Positions 48,815-59,625 of a DNA stretch of 64,000 nucleotides are shown in pieces. The translations under genes and the position numbers were made by a program. Origin of the DNA: an uncultured Gemmatimonadales bacterium (GTDB lineage Bacteria; Gemmatimonadota; Gemmatimonadetes; Gemmatimonadales; GWC2-71-9); contig CAWCFX010000001.1 in the NCBI GenBank assembly GCA_963795085.1, positions 192,001 through 256,000 on the forward strand, read 5' to 3'. The notes under the pieces were generated by a model. The model saw nothing but the letters and a program-made list of their open reading frames with translations. It ran no database searches and had not been told where the DNA came from. The first letter of the stretch is position 1. Every line of letters starts with the position of its first letter.

Positions 48815-50473
48815 ATGGAAATACGCCGGAAGGCCCGGCGCACCTTCCCCGGCCAGCGAGTCCTGCTGGCCTGGCTGTTCGCTCTTCGCATCCTGCTGGC
48901 GGTCGGCGGCGTGGTGGCCGCCCTCCTCACCCGCAACCTGGGCGGGCCCGAAGCCGCGCTGATCATCATGACGGCGGCGCTCCTGGCCTTTATCATCACG
49001 CCCTACGCCTATTGGCTGGTCTGGATGAAGGAGCGGCAGCCGGGGCTGATCTTCTTCGGCCTCCAGGTGCTGGTGGACCTGTACCTCATTACCGCCATTG
49101 TCCACTACACCAGCGGCGCCCAGAGCGCGTTCACCTTTCTCTTCGTCCTGCTGATCGCGGCCTACACCACGCTGCTCTCCTTCCGGGGGGCGCTGGTCGT
49201 GGTCATCCTGGCGACCGTGGGCTATTTCGGCGACACCTACTACCTCCATCGCGATACGATCGGCGTGGCGTTCTGGGGCCAGCTGATCCTCTTCGGCTCG
49301 GTGTTCGCCATGATGGCGCCCATGGTGGCGCGCCTCCGGGAAGCCAGCGAAGAGCACGCATCCCTGGAGACCGAGTTGCGGCGGGTGCGGCTGGAGGCCG
49401 ATGACATTCTCCGGAACATCCGGTCCGGGGTGATCACGGTGGACGGGGCGGGACGGCTGGCGTTCATCAACCCGATGGCGGCGCGGCTGCTGGAAATCGA
49501 AAGCGAGCAGCTGACCGGCATGCCGGTGCTGGACCTGCTGAAACTGCGGTCTCCCGAACTCTGGGCCGCCATCGTGGCCGCGATCCGGCACGGCCGCAAG
49601 GTGAACCGGGCCGAAGGGATGGTCCAGCTGGCGGACGGCCGCATGTTTCCCATCGGCCTCAGCACCACCACGTTCGAGGACCAGGACCAGCAGCCGCCGT
49701 CGGTCACGGCTATCTTTACCGATATCTCGGACAGCAAGCGGATTCAGGAACTCCACCTTCGTGCCGAAAGACTGGAAGCGGTCGCGGCGCTCTCCGCGTC
49801 CCTGGCCCACGAGATCCGCAACCCCCTGGCCTCGATCCGGAGTTCGGTGGAGCAACTCGCCCGCTCCGCCCGGGCCGACGACGACGAGCGGTTCCTGGCC
49901 AGTCTCATCGTCCGGGAGAGCGACCGGCTGAGCCGGCTGCTGAGCGAATTTCTCGACTTCTCCCGGGTCCGGGTGACCCGCTTCGACCCGGTGGACCTGC
50001 ATGGGGTGGTCCTGGCGGCGGCCCGTCTGGTGCGGGAACACCCCGACGCGAAGATCGAAACCGAGATCGACGTTCGAGGCGGCCGGGCCATGATGGACGG
50101 CGACGAGGACCTCCTGCACCGGGTGGTGGCCAACCTGCTGCTGAATGCGGTGCAGGCGGCCAACGGCAAGGTCAAGGTGGTCGCCGTGACCGGCCCGGCC
50201 CACATGAGCGATCTCCCGGTCGGCTGTGTCATGGACAATCCGGTGCGGCTGGAGATCCGCGACAATGGCCCCGGCATTCCCGAGGAAGTCCGGGAGCGGA
50301 TCTTCGAGCCCTTCGTCACCGGCAGGACTGGTGGAACCGGGCTGGGTCTGGCCATAGTTCAGCGTGCCGTCGAGGCCCACCGGGGATTGGTGCTGGTGGA
50401 GTCGGCCCCCGGCCATGGCACTACGTTCACCATCTTCTTTCCGGCCCGGTGGTCGGCTGAGGAAGCGGCATGA
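48815..50473 (+). CDS. pilS: PilS-like sensor histidine kinase
   Basis: About six N-terminal TM segments, PAS, AHEIRNPL, GTGLGL. Coupled to an NtrC-type regulator upstream of the pilin. Confidence 0.8.
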   Translation: MEIRRKARRTFPGQRVLLAWLFALRILLAVGGVVAALLTRNLGGPEAALIIMTAALLAFIITPYAYWLVWMKERQPGLIFFGLQVLVDLYLITAIVHYTSGAQSAFTFLFVLLIAAYTTLLSFRGALVVVILATVGYFGDTYYLHRDTIGVAFWGQLILFGSVFAMMAPMVARLREASEEHASLETELRRVRLEADDILRNIRSGVITVDGAGRLAFINPMAARLLEIESEQLTGMPVLDLLKLRSPELWAAIVAAIRHGRKVNRAEGMVQLADGRMFPIGLSTTTFEDQDQQPPSVTAIFTDISDSKRIQELHLRAERLEAVAALSASLAHEIRNPLASIRSSVEQLARSARADDDERFLASLIVRESDRLSRLLSEFLDFSRVRVTRFDPVDLHGVVLAAARLVREHPDAKIETEIDVRGGRAMMDGDEDLLHRVVANLLLNAVQAANGKVKVVAVTGPAHMSDLPVGCVMDNPVRLEIRDNGPGIPEEVRERIFEPFVTGRTGGTGLGLAIVQRAVEAHRGLVLVESAPGHGTTFTIFFPARWSAEEAA

Positions 50474-51852
50474 GTCAGAAACCAACGGTCCTCATCATCG
50501 ACGACGAGTCGGGCATCCTCGATACCCTGCGGATCCTGCTCAAGAAGGAAGGCTTCGAGGTCACCACCGCCCAGGGCGGCAAGGCCGGGCTGGACCAGAT
50601 CCGGGCCGGCACCCACGATATCATCCTGACCGATGTCCGGATGCCCCAGGTGAGCGGCTTGGACATCCTGCAGGCGGCGCGGGAGCAGGACCCGATGACC
50701 CCGGTCATCCTGATGACGGCCCAGGCCTCGCTCCAGACCGCCATCGGCGCCGTGAATGCCGGCGCTTTCTATTATATCCAGAAGCCCTTCGCCAACGACG
50801 AGCTGGTCGCCATTCTCCGGCGCGCCTGCGACTACCGCGCCGTCAAGGTCGAGAACAAGCACCTCAAGACCGAAATCCGCCGCAAGGACAGGAACGGCGT
50901 CGCCCGGCCCATCGGGAAGTCGCGGCGGTTCATGGACACCCTCAGGCTGGCCGAGCAGGTCGCCCCCACCGATTCGACCGTGCTGATCCAGGGCGAAAGC
51001 GGGACCGGCAAGGAAGTCATCGCCAACTACATCCACAATCTTTCCAACCGGACCGGCGGACCCTTCCTGTCCATCAACTGCGGCGCCCTGCCGGAGAACC
51101 TGCTGGAAAGCGAGTTGTTCGGCCACGTGAAGGGGTCGTTCACGGGGGCGGTCCGGGACAAGCAGGGCCTGTTCGCCGCCGCCCGCGGCGGCAGCTTCTT
51201 CCTCGACGAAGTGGGCGAGATGACGCCGGCCCTGCAGATCAAGCTGCTCCGGGTGCTCCAGGAACGGGAGGCGATCCCGGTCGGCGCCACCGAGGCCATT
51301 CCCGTCGATGTGCGGATCATCGCCGCCACCAACCGCGACCTGGAAGAGGAGTGCCGCCGCGGGGCCTTTCGCTCCGATCTCTTCTACCGGCTGAACGTGA
51401 TCCCGCTCCAGTTGCCCCCGCTCAGGGACCGGCGGGAGGATGTTCTTCCCCTCATGGAGACGTTCCTCCAGACCCTGGCCCAGGACCACGGAATGGAGCC
51501 CAAGGCGCTGTCCTCCGAGGCGCTCGACGCCGTGATGGTGTACGACTGGCCGGGCAATGTCCGGGAACTGGAGAATGCCCTGGAACACGCCGTGGTGCTC
51601 ACCAAGGGGCCCGTCATCGAGCCGTCCGCGCTCCCCGAGCGCATCACCAAGCGGCGCAAGGAGCCGCTGGTGGCGGAGCGGTCCTTCCAGAATCCCACCC
51701 TCGATGTCATCGAGCGCGCCTACATCATGTGGGTGCTCCAGGTAGAAGGCGGAAACAAGACCCGCGCCGCCGAGATCCTCGGCATCGACCCCTCCACCCT
51801 GTACCGGAAACTGAGCCGGTACGAGGAGGTGAAGGAGCCGGTGGGGAATTGA
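50470..51852 (+). CDS. pilR: PilR-like sigma-54-dependent response regulator
   Basis: Receiver (IDDE, TDVRMP, KP), GESGTGKE, ELFGHVKGSFTGA, FLDEV, WPGNVREL, Fis-type HTH. Confidence 0.85.
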   Translation: MSQKPTVLIIDDESGILDTLRILLKKEGFEVTTAQGGKAGLDQIRAGTHDIILTDVRMPQVSGLDILQAAREQDPMTPVILMTAQASLQTAIGAVNAGAFYYIQKPFANDELVAILRRACDYRAVKVENKHLKTEIRRKDRNGVARPIGKSRRFMDTLRLAEQVAPTDSTVLIQGESGTGKEVIANYIHNLSNRTGGPFLSINCGALPENLLESELFGHVKGSFTGAVRDKQGLFAAARGGSFFLDEVGEMTPALQIKLLRVLQEREAIPVGATEAIPVDVRIIAATNRDLEEECRRGAFRSDLFYRLNVIPLQLPPLRDRREDVLPLMETFLQTLAQDHGMEPKALSSEALDAVMVYDWPGNVRELENALEHAVVLTKGPVIEPSALPERITKRRKEPLVAERSFQNPTLDVIERAYIMWVLQVEGGNKTRAAEILGIDPSTLYRKLSRYEEVKEPVGN

Positions 51853-52127
51853 GGGAATGTTGGAATTGAGGGAATGTTGGAATTGAGGGAATTGAGGGAA
51901 TGTTGGAATTGAGGGAATGTTGGAATTGAGGGAATGTTGGAATTGAGGGAATTGAGGGAATGTTGGAATTGAGGGAATTGATCAGTTCAATTCCCGGATT
52001 CCTCAATTCCCCCATTCCCTCAATTCCCGGATTCCCTCAATTCCCGGATTCCCTCAATTCCCCCATTCCCTCAATTCCCGGATTCCCTCAATTCCCGGCT
52101 TCCCTCAATTCCCCCATTCCCTCAATT
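51845..52127. repeat. Inverted 17-bp tandem repeat arrays between pilR and pilA
   Basis: Left arm has about 10 GGAATTGAG interleaved with GGAATGTT. Right arm has about 9 CTCAATTCC interleaved with CGGATTCC or CCCATTCC. Centre near 51980. Confidence 0.95.
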
Positions 52128-52241: not shown

Positions 52242-52258
52242 CTGGCATACCTGTTGCC
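52242..52258 (+). promoter_or_regulatory. Sigma-54 (-24/-12) promoter of pilA
   Basis: CTGGCATACCTGTTGCC: GG at 52244-52245 and GC at 52256-52257 with the canonical 10-nt gap, 70 bp upstream of the ATG. Confidence 0.85.
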
Positions 52259-52327: not shown

Positions 52328-52735
52328 ATGAATCGCAAGGGTTTCACTCTGATCGAGCTTCTGATCGTCGTGGTCATCATCGGCATCCTGGCCGCGATCG
52401 CGATCCCGAAGTTCGCCAATACCAAGCAGAAGGCGATCGTCGCTTCCATGAAGACGGACCTCAAGAACCTGGTCACCGCTCAGGAAGCCTACTTCTCGGA
52501 CAACAACGCGTACGCCCCGGCAGCGGGTGCGGCGCAGGCGGCGGGCGTGGTGGCCTTCCAGCCGACCACGGGTAACGCACTGGTGCTCTCCAACGCCAGC
52601 GCGACGGGCTTCACCGGTGTCATGACCAACCCGGCCGTGACCTCGACCCCGAGCACCTGCGGCGTCTTCGTTGGACCGGCTGGTAACGCCCCCAACGCGG
52701 CCGTGACTCAGGAAGGTGCCCCGGCCTGCTGGTAA
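52328..52735 (+). CDS. pilA: Type IVa major pilin
   Basis: MNRKG|FTLIELLIVVVIIGILAAIAIPKF class III signal and a C-terminal Cys pair. Has its own RBS, promoter and terminator. Confidence 0.92.
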   Translation: MNRKGFTLIELLIVVVIIGILAAIAIPKFANTKQKAIVASMKTDLKNLVTAQEAYFSDNNAYAPAAGAAQAAGVVAFQPTTGNALVLSNASATGFTGVMTNPAVTSTPSTCGVFVGPAGNAPNAAVTQEGAPACW

Positions 52736-52974: not shown

Positions 52975-54243
52975 ATGCACCTGCTCTCGCTGACTGATGA
53001 TAGTGCGCTTCGCGAGGAATTGCGCGGGACGCTGGGCGACGAAGCATGCGAGTTCCGGAGCCCCTCCGCGTCGGCCCAGGAGCTGGAGCAGGCCATCATC
53101 CGGAGCCCCGAGGCCATCCTGCTCGATCTCGCCGGGGCGGCCGAAGCGGGAACCGCATTTTTACGGTCCTTTGCCGAGCGGGGCGAAAACATCCCGGTCC
53201 TGGTCATCTGCGGCGCCGATCAGCGCGAGGCCGGTCTCCGGGCGCTCAAGTCCGGCGCGGCCGATTACCTGATGCGGCCGGTGTCCATGGATGAGCTGGG
53301 CGCTCGGCTGGCCCGCGCCCAGGAGGCCGCCCATCTGCGCCGGGAAACCGCGGCGCTCCGGGTCTCGCTGGAGCGCAATTCCGCCCGTACGGCGTTCGTG
53401 GCGGAGAGCGAGATCATGGTGGGGATCCGGGATTCCGTCGCCGCGCTGGCCGGCGGCCACGAGCCGCTCCTCATGGTCGGCGAGCGGGGGACCGGGAAGA
53501 AGACCCTGGCCGAGTTCATCCACCGGCTCGACGGCCACCGGCGCACCCCGCCCGGCATTCTGTCCTGCCATGCCCTCGGTTCGGGACTGCTCGACTCCGC
53601 CGCCTGGCAGGCGGCGCGCGACTCCGGCACCGCCATTCTCGAAGGCATCGAGAACCTCCCCCGCCCCGAGCAGGAGCGGTTGGCCGCGAGCCTGGGGACC
53701 AACGGCGCGAAACGTCCCGTGCGGGTCATCGCGATCGCCCGTACCCACCTGGACGACCCGGACCAGCGGGGCACCGTGTCTCCCCAGTTGTTCGAGCGGT
53801 TCGCGTCCTCCATGTTCGTGCTGCCGCCGTTGCGGGAGCGCGCGCCGGACATCCCGGCGCTGCTCGCCCACTTCGCGCAGCGCACCGCGCAGCGCCTGGG
53901 CCGGCCGGTCAGCGTTTCACCCCGGGCCCTGGCCATGCTGGCGGTGTATTCCTGGCCGGGCAACGTGGCCGAACTGGAGAGCGCCGTGGAACGGGCCGCC
54001 CTGCTGGGCGGCAGCGGCCGGCTGGAATACGCCGATTTCGGCTTGGTGCCGGGTCTCGCCAGCCCGGGCGAAACACCAGGCGGCGCCCTGGAACTCAAGC
54101 CCCAGGTCGAGGCCTTCGAGCGCCAGGTGATCCTCCAGGCCCTCTCCGCCGCCAAGGGAAACCGGCAGGCGGCCGCTCGGCTCCTGGGCATCAGTCTCCG
54201 GACCCTCTTCTACAAGATCAAGAGGTATGGGGTGGAGGGTTGA
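52975..54243 (+). CDS. Degenerate NtrC-like regulator (REC-AAA-HTH) lacking the GAFTGA loop
   Basis: GERGTGKK, LPPLRER, WPGNVAELES and HTH GNRQAAARLLGISLRTL present. No GAFTGA; Walker B reads ILEGI. Confidence 0.82.
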   Translation: MHLLSLTDDSALREELRGTLGDEACEFRSPSASAQELEQAIIRSPEAILLDLAGAAEAGTAFLRSFAERGENIPVLVICGADQREAGLRALKSGAADYLMRPVSMDELGARLARAQEAAHLRRETAALRVSLERNSARTAFVAESEIMVGIRDSVAALAGGHEPLLMVGERGTGKKTLAEFIHRLDGHRRTPPGILSCHALGSGLLDSAAWQAARDSGTAILEGIENLPRPEQERLAASLGTNGAKRPVRVIAIARTHLDDPDQRGTVSPQLFERFASSMFVLPPLRERAPDIPALLAHFAQRTAQRLGRPVSVSPRALAMLAVYSWPGNVAELESAVERAALLGGSGRLEYADFGLVPGLASPGETPGGALELKPQVEAFERQVILQALSAAKGNRQAAARLLGISLRTLFYKIKRYGVEG

Positions 54244-54244
54244 G

Positions 54245-54960
54245 GTTGGCTGGCGTTACTTGGATTTGAGTCTGCCCGAACCAACAAAGCACGAAAAGAA
54301 ACACAAAAGAAGAAACTTTCCTCGTAGTAACTTCATCTTCCCAAGACTTTTGGTTGTTCTGTCTTCTCGTTTCGTGATTTGTGGTCCGGCGGTTCTGGCT
54401 GGCGTCACTCTGATTTGAGCCTGCCCGAGCACGAAAGCACGAAGGACAAATAGAAACAGCAAAAAAGACTATCGCGTGTGATAGTCTTTCCTTTTTTCTG
54501 CTATTTGGTCGTTTGGTCGTTTGGTCGTTTGGCTGTTGGCTCGCGTCACTTGGATTTGAGCCTGCCCGGAACTACAAAGCACGAAAAAAACAAACAAAGA
54601 AGAAACTCTCCTCGTCTTGGCTTCGCTCCCAAGGCGTTGATTCTTCTTGTTTCTTCCTTTCGTGATTTGTTGTCCGGCAGTTGGTGCTGGCGTCACTCAG
54701 ATTCGAGCCTGCCCGGGACAACAAAGCACGAAAAATACAAAAAGAATAAATCTCCTCGTCGTAACTTTATCCTCCCAAGACGTTGCTTTTCCTGTTTTTC
54801 TTTATTTCGTGATTTGTTGTCCGGCGGTTTTGGCTGGCTCTTCGGCTGTTCGGCGGTTCGGCCTTTGTCAATCGGATTTGAGCCTGCCCGGACCAACAAA
54901 GCACGAAAGAACAAAAATAAAGCTTTTCTTTTCTGTCATTTCGTCGTTTGGCTGTTAACG
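54245..54960. repeat. Array of five ~150-bp AT-rich imperfect palindromic units
   Basis: Core GATTTGAGCCTGCCCGRA-N-ACAAAGCACGAAA at 54263, 54412, 54553, 54700 and 54875. Complementary arm TTTCGTGATTTGTKGTCCGGC at 54370, 54658 and 54805. Confidence 0.9.
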
Positions 54961-54979
54961 CTGTTTTGGATTCCTTTTT

Positions 54980-56140
54980 CTATTGGCAGCCATTCACCCC
55001 CGGATTTCGATCCCTCGGATCCCGGCCCGGCAGCGTCCCGTCCAGCCGCAGCGCGTAGCTGTCCTGCACGTTGTTCCCCTCATAGCGAATGGACTGCAGG
55101 ATCATCGCGGCGCGGGTCCTGGTGCTGTTCAGGCTGTACCAGTTGTTGGTGGACTCGGTATAGACCGGCCCGCAGCGTACCAGCTGGACCGCGATCCCCT
55201 TCTCATAGACCACGCCGAGCATATGCTCGCCGCGGGGATGCATCCCGTTTTCGTCGAAGAAGACGGCCTTCACCTGGGTGGCCGTCCCACTGGCCCGTAC
55301 CGAGAACTTCCGCCCGGCCCAGGCCACGTTCCCGTTGAGGCTCACCGGGTTCGGGTCGCCCAGGGTGTTGTAGTCCACCCGCTTCGGGCCGGCGGAATCC
55401 CAGGCGATCTCGGTGGGCAGGGCCACCAGCGCCTTCCAGTCGTAGAGCGCGGGGCCGGCCGGCGCCAGCAGGGTGAAGACCGCCTGGGCCAGGATCTCGT
55501 GCGGCTTGCGGGTGGAGACCGGCGCCTGGGCTGCGCCGGCCGCGCATTGCGTGCTGTAGAGCGCCAGCTGGTTCGGCTGCAGTGCCGGGAGCTCCTCGCC
55601 GTGGGATAGGACATAGCCTTCATTGGGACGGCCCGGGCGGCCGGCCTGGATGGACAGGAAGCCGGGCGACAGGTTGGCCCCCCTGAGCCGGTACCAGCTG
55701 GTGCTGCCCGCGCCGCCCCGGATCGGGCACCGGGCCAGTTCGGCGCCCAGGCCGGCCTGCTTCAGCGCCGCCACCACCGGCGCCTCGCCGATCGGCGCCC
55801 CGGTGTTCCGGAAAAAGATGTTGAGGACCATGGTCCGGGCCCCGGTCGCCATCACCGTGAAGCTCCGGCCGCCGACCGTCGCGGTGCCGGTCCGGGTGAA
55901 ACACCCGCCATCGGGGAGGCAGCTCTGCAGCGCTGCCACCGGCAGCGGCGCCCAGCGGATGGCCGGGAGTTTCTCGAGCCCGTCCCAGTCGGCGGGAAGA
56001 CTCATCGCGAGGTAAGCCCTGGCGATACCGGCCAACTCACTCTCCGGCGTAGGGCCGGCGTGGAAGGCGGAGAGCCCGATCGCGGCAGCGGCGGCGGCGA
56101 TTGCCCCGATGGCAAACCTGGTTCGCATGGCTGTTCTCAC
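54980..56140 (-). CDS. Secreted hypothetical protein with internal two-fold duplication
   Basis: Signal peptide, high-GC3 codon usage. Halves share DW..L..LP..I.W, G....GR.F.V.A.G, L.RC and WY.L. Confidence 0.75.
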   Translation of the reverse strand: MRTAMRTRFAIGAIAAAAAAIGLSAFHAGPTPESELAGIARAYLAMSLPADWDGLEKLPAIRWAPLPVAALQSCLPDGGCFTRTGTATVGGRSFTVMATGARTMVLNIFFRNTGAPIGEAPVVAALKQAGLGAELARCPIRGGAGSTSWYRLRGANLSPGFLSIQAGRPGRPNEGYVLSHGEELPALQPNQLALYSTQCAAGAAQAPVSTRKPHEILAQAVFTLLAPAGPALYDWKALVALPTEIAWDSAGPKRVDYNTLGDPNPVSLNGNVAWAGRKFSVRASGTATQVKAVFFDENGMHPRGEHMLGVVYEKGIAVQLVRCGPVYTESTNNWYSLNSTRTRAAMILQSIRYEGNNVQDSYALRLDGTLPGRDPRDRNPGVNGCQ

Positions 56141-56167
56141 GTAAGGGTTTATCGTCTGCCCGCCGCT

Positions 56168-56605
56168 TCAGTCTTTCAGCAGGTATTTGAACTCCCACGC
56201 ACACCCTTCCTCCCGAAGCAGCCGCGCCGAACACTCCACCCGGAGCGTGGCGCCGCCGGGAACCGTGAAGCTGCCGCGATGGGTGCCCTGGAAGGGGATC
56301 TTCACGTCCTGGCCGTTCACCACCCCTCCCTGGCCGTCCCGGACCCAGACCCGGGCGCTGTCGGCGCCGAGGGTGTCCCGGCCCATGCAGCTGTTGCGGA
56401 CGCGGACGTGGAGTTCCTTGTCCCGCCTGGTGTGGTTGGCGTACACGTCCTCGGTACGGCCGCACTGGGTCACGTCCCCCTCAGTCACCAGGGCGGAGGC
56501 TCCCTCAGCGCCCGTCCCGGCTTCCGGCCGGTCGTCATCCTCCTGGCAGGCGGCGAGGAGGAGCAGGAGAAGGAGCGCGGGGCGGCAGGACAGAAGGCGG
56601 AACAT
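56168..56605 (-). CDS. Hypothetical lipoprotein
   Basis: MFRLLSCRPALLLLLLLAAC lipobox and four further Cys. Confidence 0.68.
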   Translation of the reverse strand: MFRLLSCRPALLLLLLLAACQEDDDRPEAGTGAEGASALVTEGDVTQCGRTEDVYANHTRRDKELHVRVRNSCMGRDTLGADSARVWVRDGQGGVVNGQDVKIPFQGTHRGSFTVPGGATLRVECSARLLREEGCAWEFKYLLKD

Positions 56606-56716
56606 GGGACCATTATGCACGGGAGGCCGGGCGGGCGCCAGTTTGCCGAATCGAAGAGGCGCATCGCGCCGACTTACTACTCGCTCTCCTTTTCCATCCA
56701 CGGCCTTGGCGATAGA

Positions 56717-56870
56717 ATGGCCGAGGGCAGGCTTCAGCCTGTCCATGACGCCAGGGCCGGATTCAGCCTGGTCGAAATCCTGGCGTCCTCGCCGTCATTG
56801 CGATGCTGGCCAGCGGCGTGACGCCGATGGTGTTTCGCAAGCTGGGCAATGCACAGGTGCGTCACGCGGG
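56717..56870 (+). pseudogene. Frameshifted, truncated prepilin/pseudopilin (GspG-like) N-terminus
   Basis: MAEGRLQPVHDARAG|FSLVEILA, then one base missing near 56785, then VLAVIAMLASGVTPMVFRKLGNAQV in another frame. No recognisable pilin body follows. Confidence 0.7.
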
Positions 56871-57082
56871 ACCTGTTCGCACTCACCTGCCTCGGCTGTC
56901 CAATACCATGGCCAGTTTCCGGCACAGAAACCCGCTTCTCTGTCCTCTCCAGCGGACACCGGCACCCGACCTTCGGCATCCTCCACTGACCCCACGCACC
57001 CCGGATCCCCCGGTTCCGCGTCACTCCCCGAACACTTCAGCTTCGGACCTGATCACCCCGACGCGGACCCTGACCACCACTC

Positions 57083-57590
57083 GTCCGGGTACTTCCCGGG
57101 ACCGGTCCGCCACTTACCACTGCTTCGGCGAGTACCTACCCGCGTGGGGCGGCCGCTGTTCAACGTCGGTCCAGTACTTACCGAGGCTGGTCGGGCACTT
57201 TCCTGCGCTGGTCAGAGGCTGCTCAAGGCAGGTCCAGTACTCTCCCCCGTCCACCCAGCACTTCACCTTCTCCGGCAACTACTTACCCCGGCTCGGCGAG
57301 TACTTGCCGCCCGCCGTCCGGCACCTGGGCGGGGCTCGTGCGGCTCTTACCAGGCGCTCGTCCGGCTCCTGGCAGGCGCACGTCCGGCTCTTGCCAGGCC
57401 TCGTCGGTCGCTGCCCCCGGTCGCGCCAGGGCCGTGGCCGCACCGGCCGGCACTGACCAGCGTCGGGCAACCACGAACCACCTCTCGTCATCCACCTCAC
57501 TTCGTTGGTACAGCTCTGGTCTTCGCTCGTCCCGGACTTGTCCACGTCCCGCAGGGGCTCGATGAGCACGCGGAAACGCTGGCATGCCGT
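57083..57590. repeat. Degenerate 21-bp-periodic tandem array (about 24 units)
   Basis: A mostly ACT/GCT/TCT-type anchor recurs at 57091, 57112, 57134, 57155, 57176, 57197, 57218, 57239, 57260, 57281, 57302, 57323, 57345, 57367, 57389, 57410 and onward to 57578. Consensus is approximately SGTCCRGYACTTRCCNNNGYY. Confidence 0.8.
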
Positions 57591-57724
57591 CTGCCCACTG
57601 TCCCCTCCGACCGCAGCGTCGTCGAGCGTGCGCGGACACTGCGGTCCTTCGCTGCACGTACATGCGGGACCCGGGCGCGGCTCGACCCCCCGCGGTCTCA
57701 ACAAGGCAGTTGATTGGAGGTGGT

Positions 57725-58408
57725 ATGAACACCGCGACGCGGGTGACGCTGGCGATGGCCATGCGGGTGCGCGAGCTGCTGGTCGCCAACCCGTTCGGCT
57801 ACCCGGCGGGCGACGACGTCATCGCCCGGCTGGTCATCAAGGTAGGGAGAGCGGAGGCGCTGCTCACGCAGCAGGAATCCGGCATGCAGGCCTCGCGCAG
57901 GAGCACGCTGTACCGCCGGGAGTTGCGCCGGGCGATCACGCGGGTCACGCTGAGGCACCTGGTCAGGATCGCCCGGCCGCTGGCACTGACTCATCCCGGC
58001 GTGGCCGGCGGGATCCGGCAGCCGGCGCTCGGCCGGAGCGAGGAGTCTTTCCTGGCCCGGGTCCAGACGATCGTGCAGGACGTCGAGGCCAACCGGGAAC
58101 TGTTCCTCCTGGTCGGGCTGTCGGATGCGGCGCTCGCCGAGCTGAAGCAGCAGCTCGCGAGCTACCGGCAGTCGATGAAGGATGCCTATGGCGGCCGGCG
58201 CGCGCATACCGGCGCCCAGGCCGAGCTGCGGTCGCTCTCCCGGGAGCTGGTGCTGATGGTGCAGCAGCTGGACGGGATCGTGGGCTACCAGTTCCAGGAC
58301 CGGCCCGAACTGCTGGGCGCGTGGAAGAGTGCGCGGAACGTGGCCTGGCCGGTGTCGAAGCCGGCGGTGCCGGAGGCCGGGCTCAAGCTGGAGAAACCGG
58401 CGGCATGA
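57725..58408 (+). CDS. Hypothetical alpha-helical protein (227 aa)
   Basis: GGAGG RBS at 57716-57720 before ATG 57725; genome-typical codon usage; amphipathic helical pattern; no signal peptide or catalytic motif recognised. Confidence 0.8.
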   Translation: MNTATRVTLAMAMRVRELLVANPFGYPAGDDVIARLVIKVGRAEALLTQQESGMQASRRSTLYRRELRRAITRVTLRHLVRIARPLALTHPGVAGGIRQPALGRSEESFLARVQTIVQDVEANRELFLLVGLSDAALAELKQQLASYRQSMKDAYGGRRAHTGAQAELRSLSRELVLMVQQLDGIVGYQFQDRPELLGAWKSARNVAWPVSKPAVPEAGLKLEKPAA

Positions 58409-58533
58409 AGGGGGACAACGGAGGCAGGGTGGAATAGGGGGGCAGGCACCGCTGGGGTCCTCCGGGGGAGCCTGACCCCTTCCGTTCCCGCCGTCCCCCG
58501 CTATTCTAGGAAACCTCCTTCCTGGAGTTCTCC

Positions 58534-59625
58534 GTGTTCCGACCGGCGATCCCCGGCGCCTTCGTGATCGGCGCGCTCACCGCCAGCATCGGCCTCGTTC
58601 ACGCCCAGTCGAGCGCACCCGCGCCACTCCGGGTGCAACGCGCCGAAATCATGGACCGCCGCGGCTTCGAGCGGCCCATGGTGGCCTACACGCTGTTCGT
58701 GCCGGCGGGGTGGCGCGGGGAAGGCGAGATCGAATACGCTCCGCCCGGCGGCTGCGGCCCGGACCAGCGGATCAACTGGCGGGCGTCCGATCCCGCCGGC
58801 GTGGCCGCCATCCAGGTCGTCCCCGAGGAAAAGTGGTCGGCCAGTAATTTTCAGCAGCCGGACAACTGCCTCCACGCCCAGGTGGGCGACACCCGGTCCT
58901 ACCTGCAGTGGTGGGTCCAGCGTAACCGGCCGGGCGCGCGGGTGCTGGACTACCGGCCCCGTCCCGATCTCGCGGAGCCCTTCAAGAAAATCGCCCAGTC
59001 GGGAAACGGGATCCGGAGCTGGGGCGACGCCGGTGAAATGCTCATTGCCTACCAGCACAATGGGCGCCCGGTCCGGGAGGCGATCTCCAGCGCCAATTTC
59101 TTCATCCACACCCAGATGTCGGGCATGGAGATGCTCCAGGGCGTGAGCGCGCCGGGCTTCGCCATGCGGATGCCGGAGGGCGCGCTGGACTTCAAGGCCG
59201 CCGAGGCGATCCGGCAATCCATCCGGTCGGCGCCGGAGTGGCAGGCCCGGATGAACCGGGTCATGGCCGAGCGCGGCCAGATCGCGATCGACCACAACCG
59301 CCGGATGGGCGAGATCAACCGGCAGGGCGCGGCGGACCGTTCCGCCATCATCGCCAACACCAGCCGGGAGATCAACGAGATCCAGATGGGCACCTGGCAG
59401 AGCCGCAACGAAAGCATGGACCGCCAGCAGCGCGAAACCATCGAAGGCATTCGGGGGGTGGAGACCTACACCGATCCGCACCACGGCGGCACCGTCCAGC
59501 TTTCCAACCAGTTCCAGCACGCCTGGCAGCTCCGGGACGGCAGCTACCTGCTGACCGACGATCCCAATTTCGATCCGGCGCGGACCCTGAACCTGCCGGG
59601 ACAGCGGCTGAAACCGGCCCCGTAA
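58534..59625 (+). CDS. Secreted hypothetical protein
   Basis: GGAG RBS, signal peptide ending VHAQ, Gln/Arg/Met-rich helical segment, C-terminal IRGVETY.DP..G..V.L motif. Confidence 0.78.
   Translation: MFRPAIPGAFVIGALTASIGLVHAQSSAPAPLRVQRAEIMDRRGFERPMVAYTLFVPAGWRGEGEIEYAPPGGCGPDQRINWRASDPAGVAAIQVVPEEKWSASNFQQPDNCLHAQVGDTRSYLQWWVQRNRPGARVLDYRPRPDLAEPFKKIAQSGNGIRSWGDAGEMLIAYQHNGRPVREAISSANFFIHTQMSGMEMLQGVSAPGFAMRMPEGALDFKAAEAIRQSIRSAPEWQARMNRVMAERGQIAIDHNRRMGEINRQGAADRSAIIANTSREINEIQMGTWQSRNESMDRQQRETIEGIRGVETYTDPHHGGTVQLSNQFQHAWQLRDGSYLLTDDPNFDPARTLNLPGQRLKPAP

Follow-up and report, generated by a model that had tools for sequence, protein, structure and literature searches.

What does a stretch of non-coding DNA do that repeats every 21 bp and stands immediately upstream of a gene for a helical protein? 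The question is raised by a locus of an uncultured Gemmatimonadales bacterium, found in a window of 64,000 nucleotides that comprises positions 192,001 to 256,000 of contig CAWCFX010000001.1 (assembly GCA_963795085.1); positions given here without a contig are those of the window. An initial annotation of the window had described the repeat as a cryptic array followed by an orphan protein, and had proposed that it was either a phased binding platform similar to iterons or centromeres, or a repetitive leader or non-coding RNA. Judged from sequence, the array is probably a helically phased, multi-site platform of the enhancer type for sigma-54 activation. The module to which it belongs is made up of the following parts.

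57083-57548, plus strand: non-coding array in which 22 degenerate units of 21/22 bp follow one another as direct repeats, the sense strand being rich in pyrimidines (from periodicity, segmentation and GC skew)
57580-57594, plus strand: predicted sigma-54-type promoter with -24 GG and -12 GC, TGGCAT-N5-CTGC (read in the sequence; the pattern recurs in related loci)
57606-57724, plus strand: predicted 5' leader of ~120 nt with conserved stem-loops (from a consensus fold and the identity between close locus pairs)
57725-58408, plus strand: gene for an all-helical, basic protein of 227 amino acids (aa; isoelectric point, pI, 10.7), whose large family is uncharacterised and so far known from Gemmatimonadota only (from profile search and AlphaFold2)

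The base autocorrelation of 57083-57600 at lag 21 was 0.427 (z 7.4 against 200 dinucleotide-preserving shuffles), and lags 63, 42 and 22 came next in the same test (z 5.4, 5.2 and 4.2). The peak at lag 21 was also present over the broader stretch 56900-57700, where the initial annotation had expected it (z 6.1), while in the open reading frame (ORF) at 57725-58408 lag 21 reached only z 2.3 and the lags were the multiples of three expected of a gene. Profile-plus-chain segmentation divided 57083-57548 into 22 degenerate direct-repeat units with spacings of 21 bp (16 times), 22 bp (5 times) and 20 bp (once), and the chain score of 276.9 compared with 62 ± 19 (maximum 117) for 60 shuffles taken through identical fitting. 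The best-kept unit columns (i.e., G2, C4, C10 and C15) were found in 91-100% of the units, with C10 kept in 22/22, and T stood at columns 11-12. The claimed 21-bp-periodic array is thus confirmed, with units that align in rows of 21, and the example units given by the initial annotation, its 22-bp units and its remark that the period was better kept than the sequence were all correct. Its estimate of about 135 bp between the end of the array and the start of the ORF has to be revised, as segmentation gives 177 nt from the array end to the ATG of the 227-aa gene. Tandem Repeats Finder reported only 57315-57405, and a report of part of the array indicates that it is truly degenerate, or cryptic. 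The G+C content was 0.66-0.71 throughout 56800-57700, and the GC skew of the array was -0.14 to -0.24, i.e., its plus strand is purine-poor.

The window repeat is a real, non-coding feature. The contrary explanation is that it is a decayed heptad-repeat coding sequence, for example the tail of a pilin-like ORF from 56729, or a transcribed repetitive or sponge RNA, and in its favor are that 21 bp equal seven codons, that two plus-strand frames are open throughout the array, that one codon phase has a GC of 0.78-0.87 and that a prepilin-like start lies upstream. The open frames are, however, attributed to the purine-poor strand, which removes stop codons; on the minus strand, stops were found in 3/3 frames, and the GC at the best codon phase compares with 0.90-0.98 in neighbouring genes. 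Six-frame translation together with GC and base use per codon phase gave a weak coding-like signal, which is attributed to 21 being a multiple of 3, and a test for period-3 column conservation was negative, as it reached p<0.05 in 1/45 related arrays. Of 735 unit spacings in these 45 arrays, 600 were 21 bp, 80 were 22 bp, 41 were 20 bp and 14 had other lengths; spacings that break the frame were present in 28/45 arrays, and the 22-bp units break every frame. These two tests back the proposal of the initial annotation that the constraint acts on the nucleic acid rather than on codons, and argue against the decayed heptad-repeat coding sequence that it had named as the opposite outcome. A pilin with a heptad tail was likewise rejected, as the prepilin-like start at 56729 belongs to a frameshifted gspG-like relic of 103 nt, with homology that does not extend as far as the array. 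A sponge RNA of the CsrB/RsmZ type was rejected because the genome, at 93% completeness, gave no CsrA match and no Rfam family matched over 54000-59000, the one sub-threshold chance match lying elsewhere. Given also that the promoter lies downstream of the array, we consider a coding or RNA origin of the repeat extremely improbable.

In the window, the predicted promoter begins 31 bp past the last array unit, and transcription is predicted to start near 57605, followed by a Shine-Dalgarno sequence (GGAGG) at 57716-57720 and the ATG at 57725. The -24/-12 pattern was present within the last 260 nt before the ATG in 45/45 related loci, where 0.055 per window was expected from the genome-wide rate, and it was positioned at -123 to -148 from the ATG in 40/45. 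The source genome (G000, with contigs C1, C2 and so on) encodes an RpoN DNA-binding domain at G000:C2:375987 (215 bits) as well as twelve full-length Sigma54_activat matches (152-248 bits), and a PilR-like activator gene is encoded within the window. As predicted from these sequences, the -24/-12 element and the RpoN and activator proteins that a sigma-54 promoter with an upstream enhancer calls for are present. Because the promoter stands between array and gene in 45/45 loci, transcription is predicted to start downstream of the array, which contradicts the proposal that it is a repetitive leader or non-coding RNA. The leader itself appears to be structured: in a consensus fold of 18 leaders, 10/15 predicted pairs were maintained through changes on both sides, and no Rfam family matched the leader. 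The window leader (57606-57724) resembles those of loci L021-L048, which are conserved and apparently structured with compensatory changes, and the leader conserved in a second subfamily (L055-L075) is a different one, with loops of the UUCG type.

Periodicity of 21, 22, 42 or 43 bp was also found just 5' of the gene in the other four paralogues of the source genome and in two relatives, and the neighbours of the five copies in the source genome are unrelated. Of 46 full or near-full loci, 43 had 300 nt or more of upstream sequence, and in 34 of these the strongest upstream periodicity was 21, 42 or 43, while an equivalent periodicity downstream of the gene was found in only 4 of the 42 regions examined. 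Periodic windows (21/22/42/43 bp) were present within 600 nt upstream of the promoter in 44/45 loci. In a re-count, the region upstream of the promoter was periodic in 38/39 loci (440/726 windows), compared to 3/35 loci (4/665 windows) downstream of the gene and 3/24 loci (5/456 windows) at 2.4-3 kb upstream. The periodicity thus persists where the unit sequence differs, as the initial annotation had suggested testing in the flanks of homologues, and its view of array plus protein as a two-part module is borne out by a layout kept across related loci whose proteins have diverged to 27-57% identity (45 loci). Within 3 kb of the gene, no regulator gene recurs across the 46 loci; the recurrent neighbours are a second helical gene (7 loci) and an unrelated nuclease-like family (6 loci). 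As judged by sequence comparison, the array, the predicted sigma-54 promoter, the leader and the gene are a conserved recurring unit of this Gemmatimonadota family.

The ORF at 57725-58408 is a real gene, with the Shine-Dalgarno sequence upstream and a G+C content of about 0.9 at third codon positions, and AlphaFold2 modelled its product with confidence as an all-helical bundle built on two helices of ~60 residues each (mean pLDDT 87), in agreement with the all-helical ORF of the initial annotation. The protein is not an orphan, as had been claimed: an exhaustive profile search found 5,088 representative clusters, defined at 50% identity, at E <= 0.001 and 477 at E <= 1e-30. A word-indexed protein search found 38 clusters, the few named ones being all Gemmatimonadetes/Gemmatimonadales, and a search of genome contigs found 63 loci, all in metagenome-assembled genomes (MAGs) of Gemmatimonadota and often several per genome; every named or located family member is thus from Gemmatimonadota. 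Within the source genome, the family is represented by five full-length paralogues, which are 29-61% identical, and by fragments at two loci. In a single-protein search, 2/40 sampled relatives matched, which indicates that the family is patchy. Its members are basic proteins, with a median pI of 9.55 in 174 of them and a pI of 10.66 in the window protein; a conserved GRRxHTG motif and a WxSARNVAWP tail characterise the family.

No Pfam, NCBIfam or PADLOC match was found for the window protein, and no additional Pfam domain in longer family members. The fold search that the initial annotation had recommended along with structure prediction yielded no clear fold relative for the modelled bundle: no informative relative was retrieved from ESM Atlas, by Foldseek (PDB and BFVD) or by VIA-align, and the top structural match, the McpS ligand-binding domain (Z 10.6, root-mean-square deviation 4.1 over 180 residues, 13% identity), lies in the noise range of helical bundles, with a Foldseek E-value of 0.08 for the McpS-type match that is below the informative level for such bundles. 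Helical bimodular sensors like McpS and TorS consist of two stacked four-helix bundles on two long helices and are periplasmic and ligand-binding; no signal peptide or membrane segment was seen in the sequence of the window protein. A homodimer prediction scored 0.00, which is below the mark and gives no answer either way. In seven loci of one subfamily (L056, L057, L058, L060, L065, L069 and L073), a second helical ORF (~220-260 aa) lies 210-370 nt 3' of the family gene; it has no Pfam match and reads by eye as a distant paralogue.

While period, polarity and position of the array persist, its unit sequences turn over completely and are unrelated between paralogues and most loci. In close locus pairs, promoter and leader are 92-99% identical, whereas the arrays are 59-82% identical or unalignable and differ, among other things, by indels of 21 and 42 bp. 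Where the arrays reach 59-82% identity, promoter plus leader reach 97-99%. Polarity is evident in base composition: on the sense strand, GC skew was below zero in 37/44 arrays and AT skew in 38/44, and the phased conserved 3-mers were pyrimidine-rich (TCC in 8 arrays and GGA in 0; CCC in 9 and GGG in 0). A universal array motif was sought and rejected, the best phased 3-mer being found in only 9/44 arrays.

Between array and promoter, an AT-rich pair of TTATGCAT-like motifs, 20-21 bp apart, was found by pattern in 12/45 loci and by eye in more, and one large subgroup has two or three such motifs in this interval. The first copy is at -51, -52, -70 to -73, -94 or -112 from the promoter, and in the 12 related loci all of these positions fall within a 4-bp band modulo 21, which is suggestive of a 21-bp register tied to the helical face of the promoter. 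The motif is common to paralogues of one genome whose distal arrays differ; the window copy and its two nearest paralogues are without it. By its sequence, the element looks like proximal activator sites or an IHF-like bend site.

We return to the question of what the array does. Of the two proposals of the initial annotation, the phased binding platform is the best reading, and from architecture, periodicity and promoter we infer promoter use, protein binding and the kind of binder. The array would be cis-regulatory DNA upstream of a sigma-54-dependent promoter, from which the 227-aa gene would be transcribed. Units of 21/22 bp correspond to two helical turns and would line up short, similar sites along the same face of the DNA, in a row beginning ~30-90 bp upstream of the -24 element and extending over 200-500 bp. 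A regulator, either a sigma-54 activator (bacterial enhancer-binding protein) or an accessory protein, would dock on these sites, oligomerise in helical register and contact the promoter-bound sigma-54 polymerase. Slippage by whole units would alter the number of sites and not the face that they present to the promoter; given that the unit equals two helical turns, sequence and copy number could drift quickly while the period stays fixed. A parallel is found in the same window, where pilA has a near-consensus sigma-54 promoter after a repeat array.

Several points weigh against the enhancer-type platform. No motif is common to all arrays, so that one shared sequence-specific activator cannot explain the distal units. 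To our knowledge, known sigma-54 enhancers have 2-5 sites, compared to the 10-30 units here. With 31 bp between the end of the window array and the promoter, the proximal units are too near to act by looping, and the TTATGCAT-like pair is missing from the window copy. About seven similar 21/22-bp arrays of the source genome have no adjoining family gene or promoter, and one of these orphan arrays shares 66% identity, in inverted orientation, with an array linked to the gene; arrays can thus persist or spread without the gene. It should also be noted that the promoter pattern was written after examples had been seen, and that the loci compared are related MAG sequences rather than independent trials. 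Among the sequencing runs searched, none from RNA contained the stretch, and only four from DNA contained small parts of it.

Orphan degenerate arrays with periods of 21, 22 or 43 bp were located at G000:C1:876583-877128, C1:1345756-1346394, C1:426931-427686, C1:531500-532050, C2:14911-15498 and C3:379429-380142; C1:1345756-1346345 is the 66%-identical inverted copy, its gene-linked counterpart being the array before the paralogue at C4:7042. Most other weak 21-periodic matches in the genome fall inside annotated-looking ORFs, and one candidate, C1:648715-649150, which is 21-periodic and lies beside another sigma-54-type promoter, was rejected as a real heptad-repeat gene.

Three further explanations have to be weighed against this platform. 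The encoded basic helical protein could itself bind its own array, each unit taking one protomer or dimer, and so form a filament with an autoregulatory or architectural role, the unit sequence recognised being particular to each paralogue; we consider both parts of this explanation unlikely. It is consistent with the occurrence of array and gene together at five places with different neighbours, with the basic character of the family and with its conserved GRRxHTG motif. It is also consistent with distal units that are paralogue-specific beside a proximal AT-rich motif common to paralogues of one genome, given that the only paralogue-specific protein at hand is the gene product. However, no DNA-binding fold or family was recognised in the protein, whose top match is to a chemoreceptor sensor bundle within the noise range, and high arginine content is common in genomes of 70% G+C. 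Co-inheritance is equally expected of a gene and its own enhancer, and the orphan arrays exist without the gene. If self-recognition were true, each paralogue would have a private feedback or architectural switch, and co-diversification of array and protein would explain why distal units differ while the proximal motif and the promoter are shared. The protein would then be a new kind of DNA-binding protein with a new DNA-binding fold, polymerising along its own 21-bp array, on one helical face, beside a sigma-54 promoter, to which we likewise assign a low probability.

The other two explanations dispense with a site-specific binder. It is distinctly unlikely that the array is structural DNA, in which the bends of the units add up or the units act as a phase-preserving spacer that tunes the looping between activator and promoter. 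Period and polarity are conserved and sequence is not, as this would predict, and in a wedge-model calculation the predicted curvature exceeded that of composition-matched shuffles at z < -2 in 14/43 arrays, with z < 0 in 30/43. In other systems, IHF or curved DNA aids such looping, and intrinsic curvature can substitute for IHF at sigma-54 promoters. However, the window array is not predicted to be curved (z -0.2), and neither are 29/43 arrays, so that intrinsic curvature was rejected as a general explanation. In addition, near-invariant columns such as C10 (22/22 units) look like base-specific contacts, and in a row that mixes 21- and 22-bp units a bend would be twisted and no longer planar. 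That the array is a functionless, slippage-prone minisatellite hitch-hiking in a repeat-rich genome is very unlikely, although intergenic tandem arrays (of period 8, 17 and 22 bp) abound in the genome, orphan 21/22-bp arrays exist, and the array is the fastest-evolving part of the locus and changes by whole units. Against this are its constant place and polarity in 44/45 loci, compared to periodicity in 3/35 and 3/24 control regions, and a phase held over ~20 units near sequence saturation; under neutral indels, such a phase should have been lost.

A type IV pilus region surrounds the module, with pilS-pilR-pilA on one side and the minor pilin genes on the other; the module itself lies between a lipoprotein gene (56168-56608) and a gene for a 363-aa product (58534-59625). 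The features of this region and of the left flank of the module are as follows.

48815-50470: PilS-like kinase gene
50470-51849: PilR-like activator gene
52328-52732: pilin gene pilA
52975-54243: second activator-like gene
56711-56744, no strand assigned: REP-like hairpin element (three other copies in the genome at 91-100% identity, conserved stem-loop)
56758-56859, plus strand: frameshifted 5' fragment (relic) of a gspG-type pseudopilin gene, which marks a rearranged left flank
from 60487, after the module: minor pilin genes

The gspG relic matches the start of the mature part of the intact gspG-like gene G000:C1:860114 at 81% identity (103 nt, one gap of 1 nt); the homology ends there with no continuation, and Pfam was silent on the 30-aa piece. 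Given this relic and the differing neighbours of the paralogues, insertion of the module into the pilus region is plausible; no related genome with an empty site was obtained. A sigma-70-like promoter match lies at 56691-56718, upstream of the relic. The REP-like hairpin (stem, CTTCAG-type loop, stem), which is repeated at several intergenic sites (L002, L003 and L004), is partly overlapped by the prepilin-like relic region and probably lies outside the module.

In addition to the module, other repeats were observed in the window. The near-consensus sigma-54 promoter of pilA (TGGCAT-N5-TTGC) is at 52243-52257, and at 51845-52127, after the PilR-like gene, ~8 copies of a 17-bp unit are followed by ~8 inverted copies to form a giant inverted repeat, so that the pilA region is a second design of repeat array plus sigma-54 promoter in the window. 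The product of 52975-54243 has a receiver, an AAA-lid and a Fis-type helix-turn-helix, and Sigma54_activat matched it over the first 69 positions only (31 bits); its ATPase core may be degenerate. Between this gene and a 386-aa minus-strand gene, the stretch 54246-54838 has a G+C content of 0.45-0.48, compared to ~0.70, and consists of ~four copies of a 147-bp repeat with 68% matches.

Elsewhere in the source genome, the N-terminus of the ORF G000:C2:15534-16520 reads by eye like an integron integrase (no family search was made), and the orphan 22-bp array C2:14911-15498 lies directly beside it. Dozens of ~100-nt repeats, 500-600 bp apart, occupy two contig ends (C2:1-11400 and C1:1381000-1390345), and a smaller cluster at C1:621000-625250 (L020) adjoins the paralogue at C1:628063; by sequence, these repeats resemble the attC sites found in arrays of gene cassettes. 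At G000:C6:744903, arrays of 8-bp units (18-21 copies) stand on both sides of the paralogous module (L008 376-522 and 2140-2430), and the far side also bears an inverted run; the genome is very rich in 8-bp arrays of this kind.

For enhancer-dependent transcription in bacteria, the model is the sigma-54 promoter. Described enhancers of this kind hold few activator sites, whereas here each family gene is preceded by a 200-500-bp array that keeps a register of two helical turns while its sequence is replaced repeatedly. If the array is indeed an enhancer-type platform, these loci would be a natural system for relating site number and helical phase to the output of a bacterial enhancer, and would show how enhancers evolve by slippage. 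For annotation of Gemmatimonadota and similar soil genomes, the resulting rule is that, where gene-free DNA shows a cryptic period of 21 bp, a sigma-54 promoter is indicated immediately downstream. A full-text literature search, which was mostly at the level of abstracts, found neither a description of long phased arrays at sigma-54 promoters nor one of tandem repeats in Gemmatimonadota.

The closest known systems are the upstream activating sequences of sigma-54 promoters, such as the NtrC sites at E. coli glnAp2 and the PspF sites at pspA. Like these enhancers, the arrays lie upstream of a -24/-12 promoter and present tandem similar sites on one helical face. For the Nla28 promoters of Myxococcus xanthus, one study describes 2-5 imperfect tandem 8-bp half-sites, up to ~25 bp apart (PMC9765219). 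The arrays are different in that 10-30 units extend over 200-500 bp to within 30-90 bp of the promoter, and no activator gene is linked to the module in 46 loci. In addition, the unit sequence differs between paralogues of one genome, so that one activator with one motif does not explain the arrays.

Plasmid iterons (R6K, pPS10, F and RK2) are direct repeats of ~19-22 bp in helical register, with 3-7 units beside rep. The arrays are likewise direct repeats in helical register immediately upstream of the promoter of an adjacent gene. However, they number five chromosomal copies with 10-30 units and a sigma-54 promoter, and the module has neither a Rep-type (winged-helix) protein nor an AT-rich unwinding region (DnaA boxes were not searched for). 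In partition centromeres, such as parC of R1 and tubC, a phased array of short repeats is coated cooperatively by a small protein encoded downstream, and the arrays resemble them as phased short direct repeats next to a promoter. In contrast to these centromeres, the module is without a partition NTPase or ribbon-helix-helix adaptor and consists of a single 227-aa helical-bundle gene in multiple chromosomal copies; no recurrent flanking partition family was found in 46 loci, and the neighbours differ at the five copies. The comparison of the array with iterons or centromeres in the initial annotation is therefore not supported, given that no Rep or partition gene is nearby, that the copies are chromosomal and that the product is a helical bundle. 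The arrays also share features with the short-unit arrays (8 and 17 bp) of the source genome, as both are intergenic, tandem, fast-evolving and abundant. They are set apart from the simple repeats of this genome (5-11 bp) by their 21/22-bp unit, by the degeneracy of their copies and by their tie to one gene family and one promoter type.

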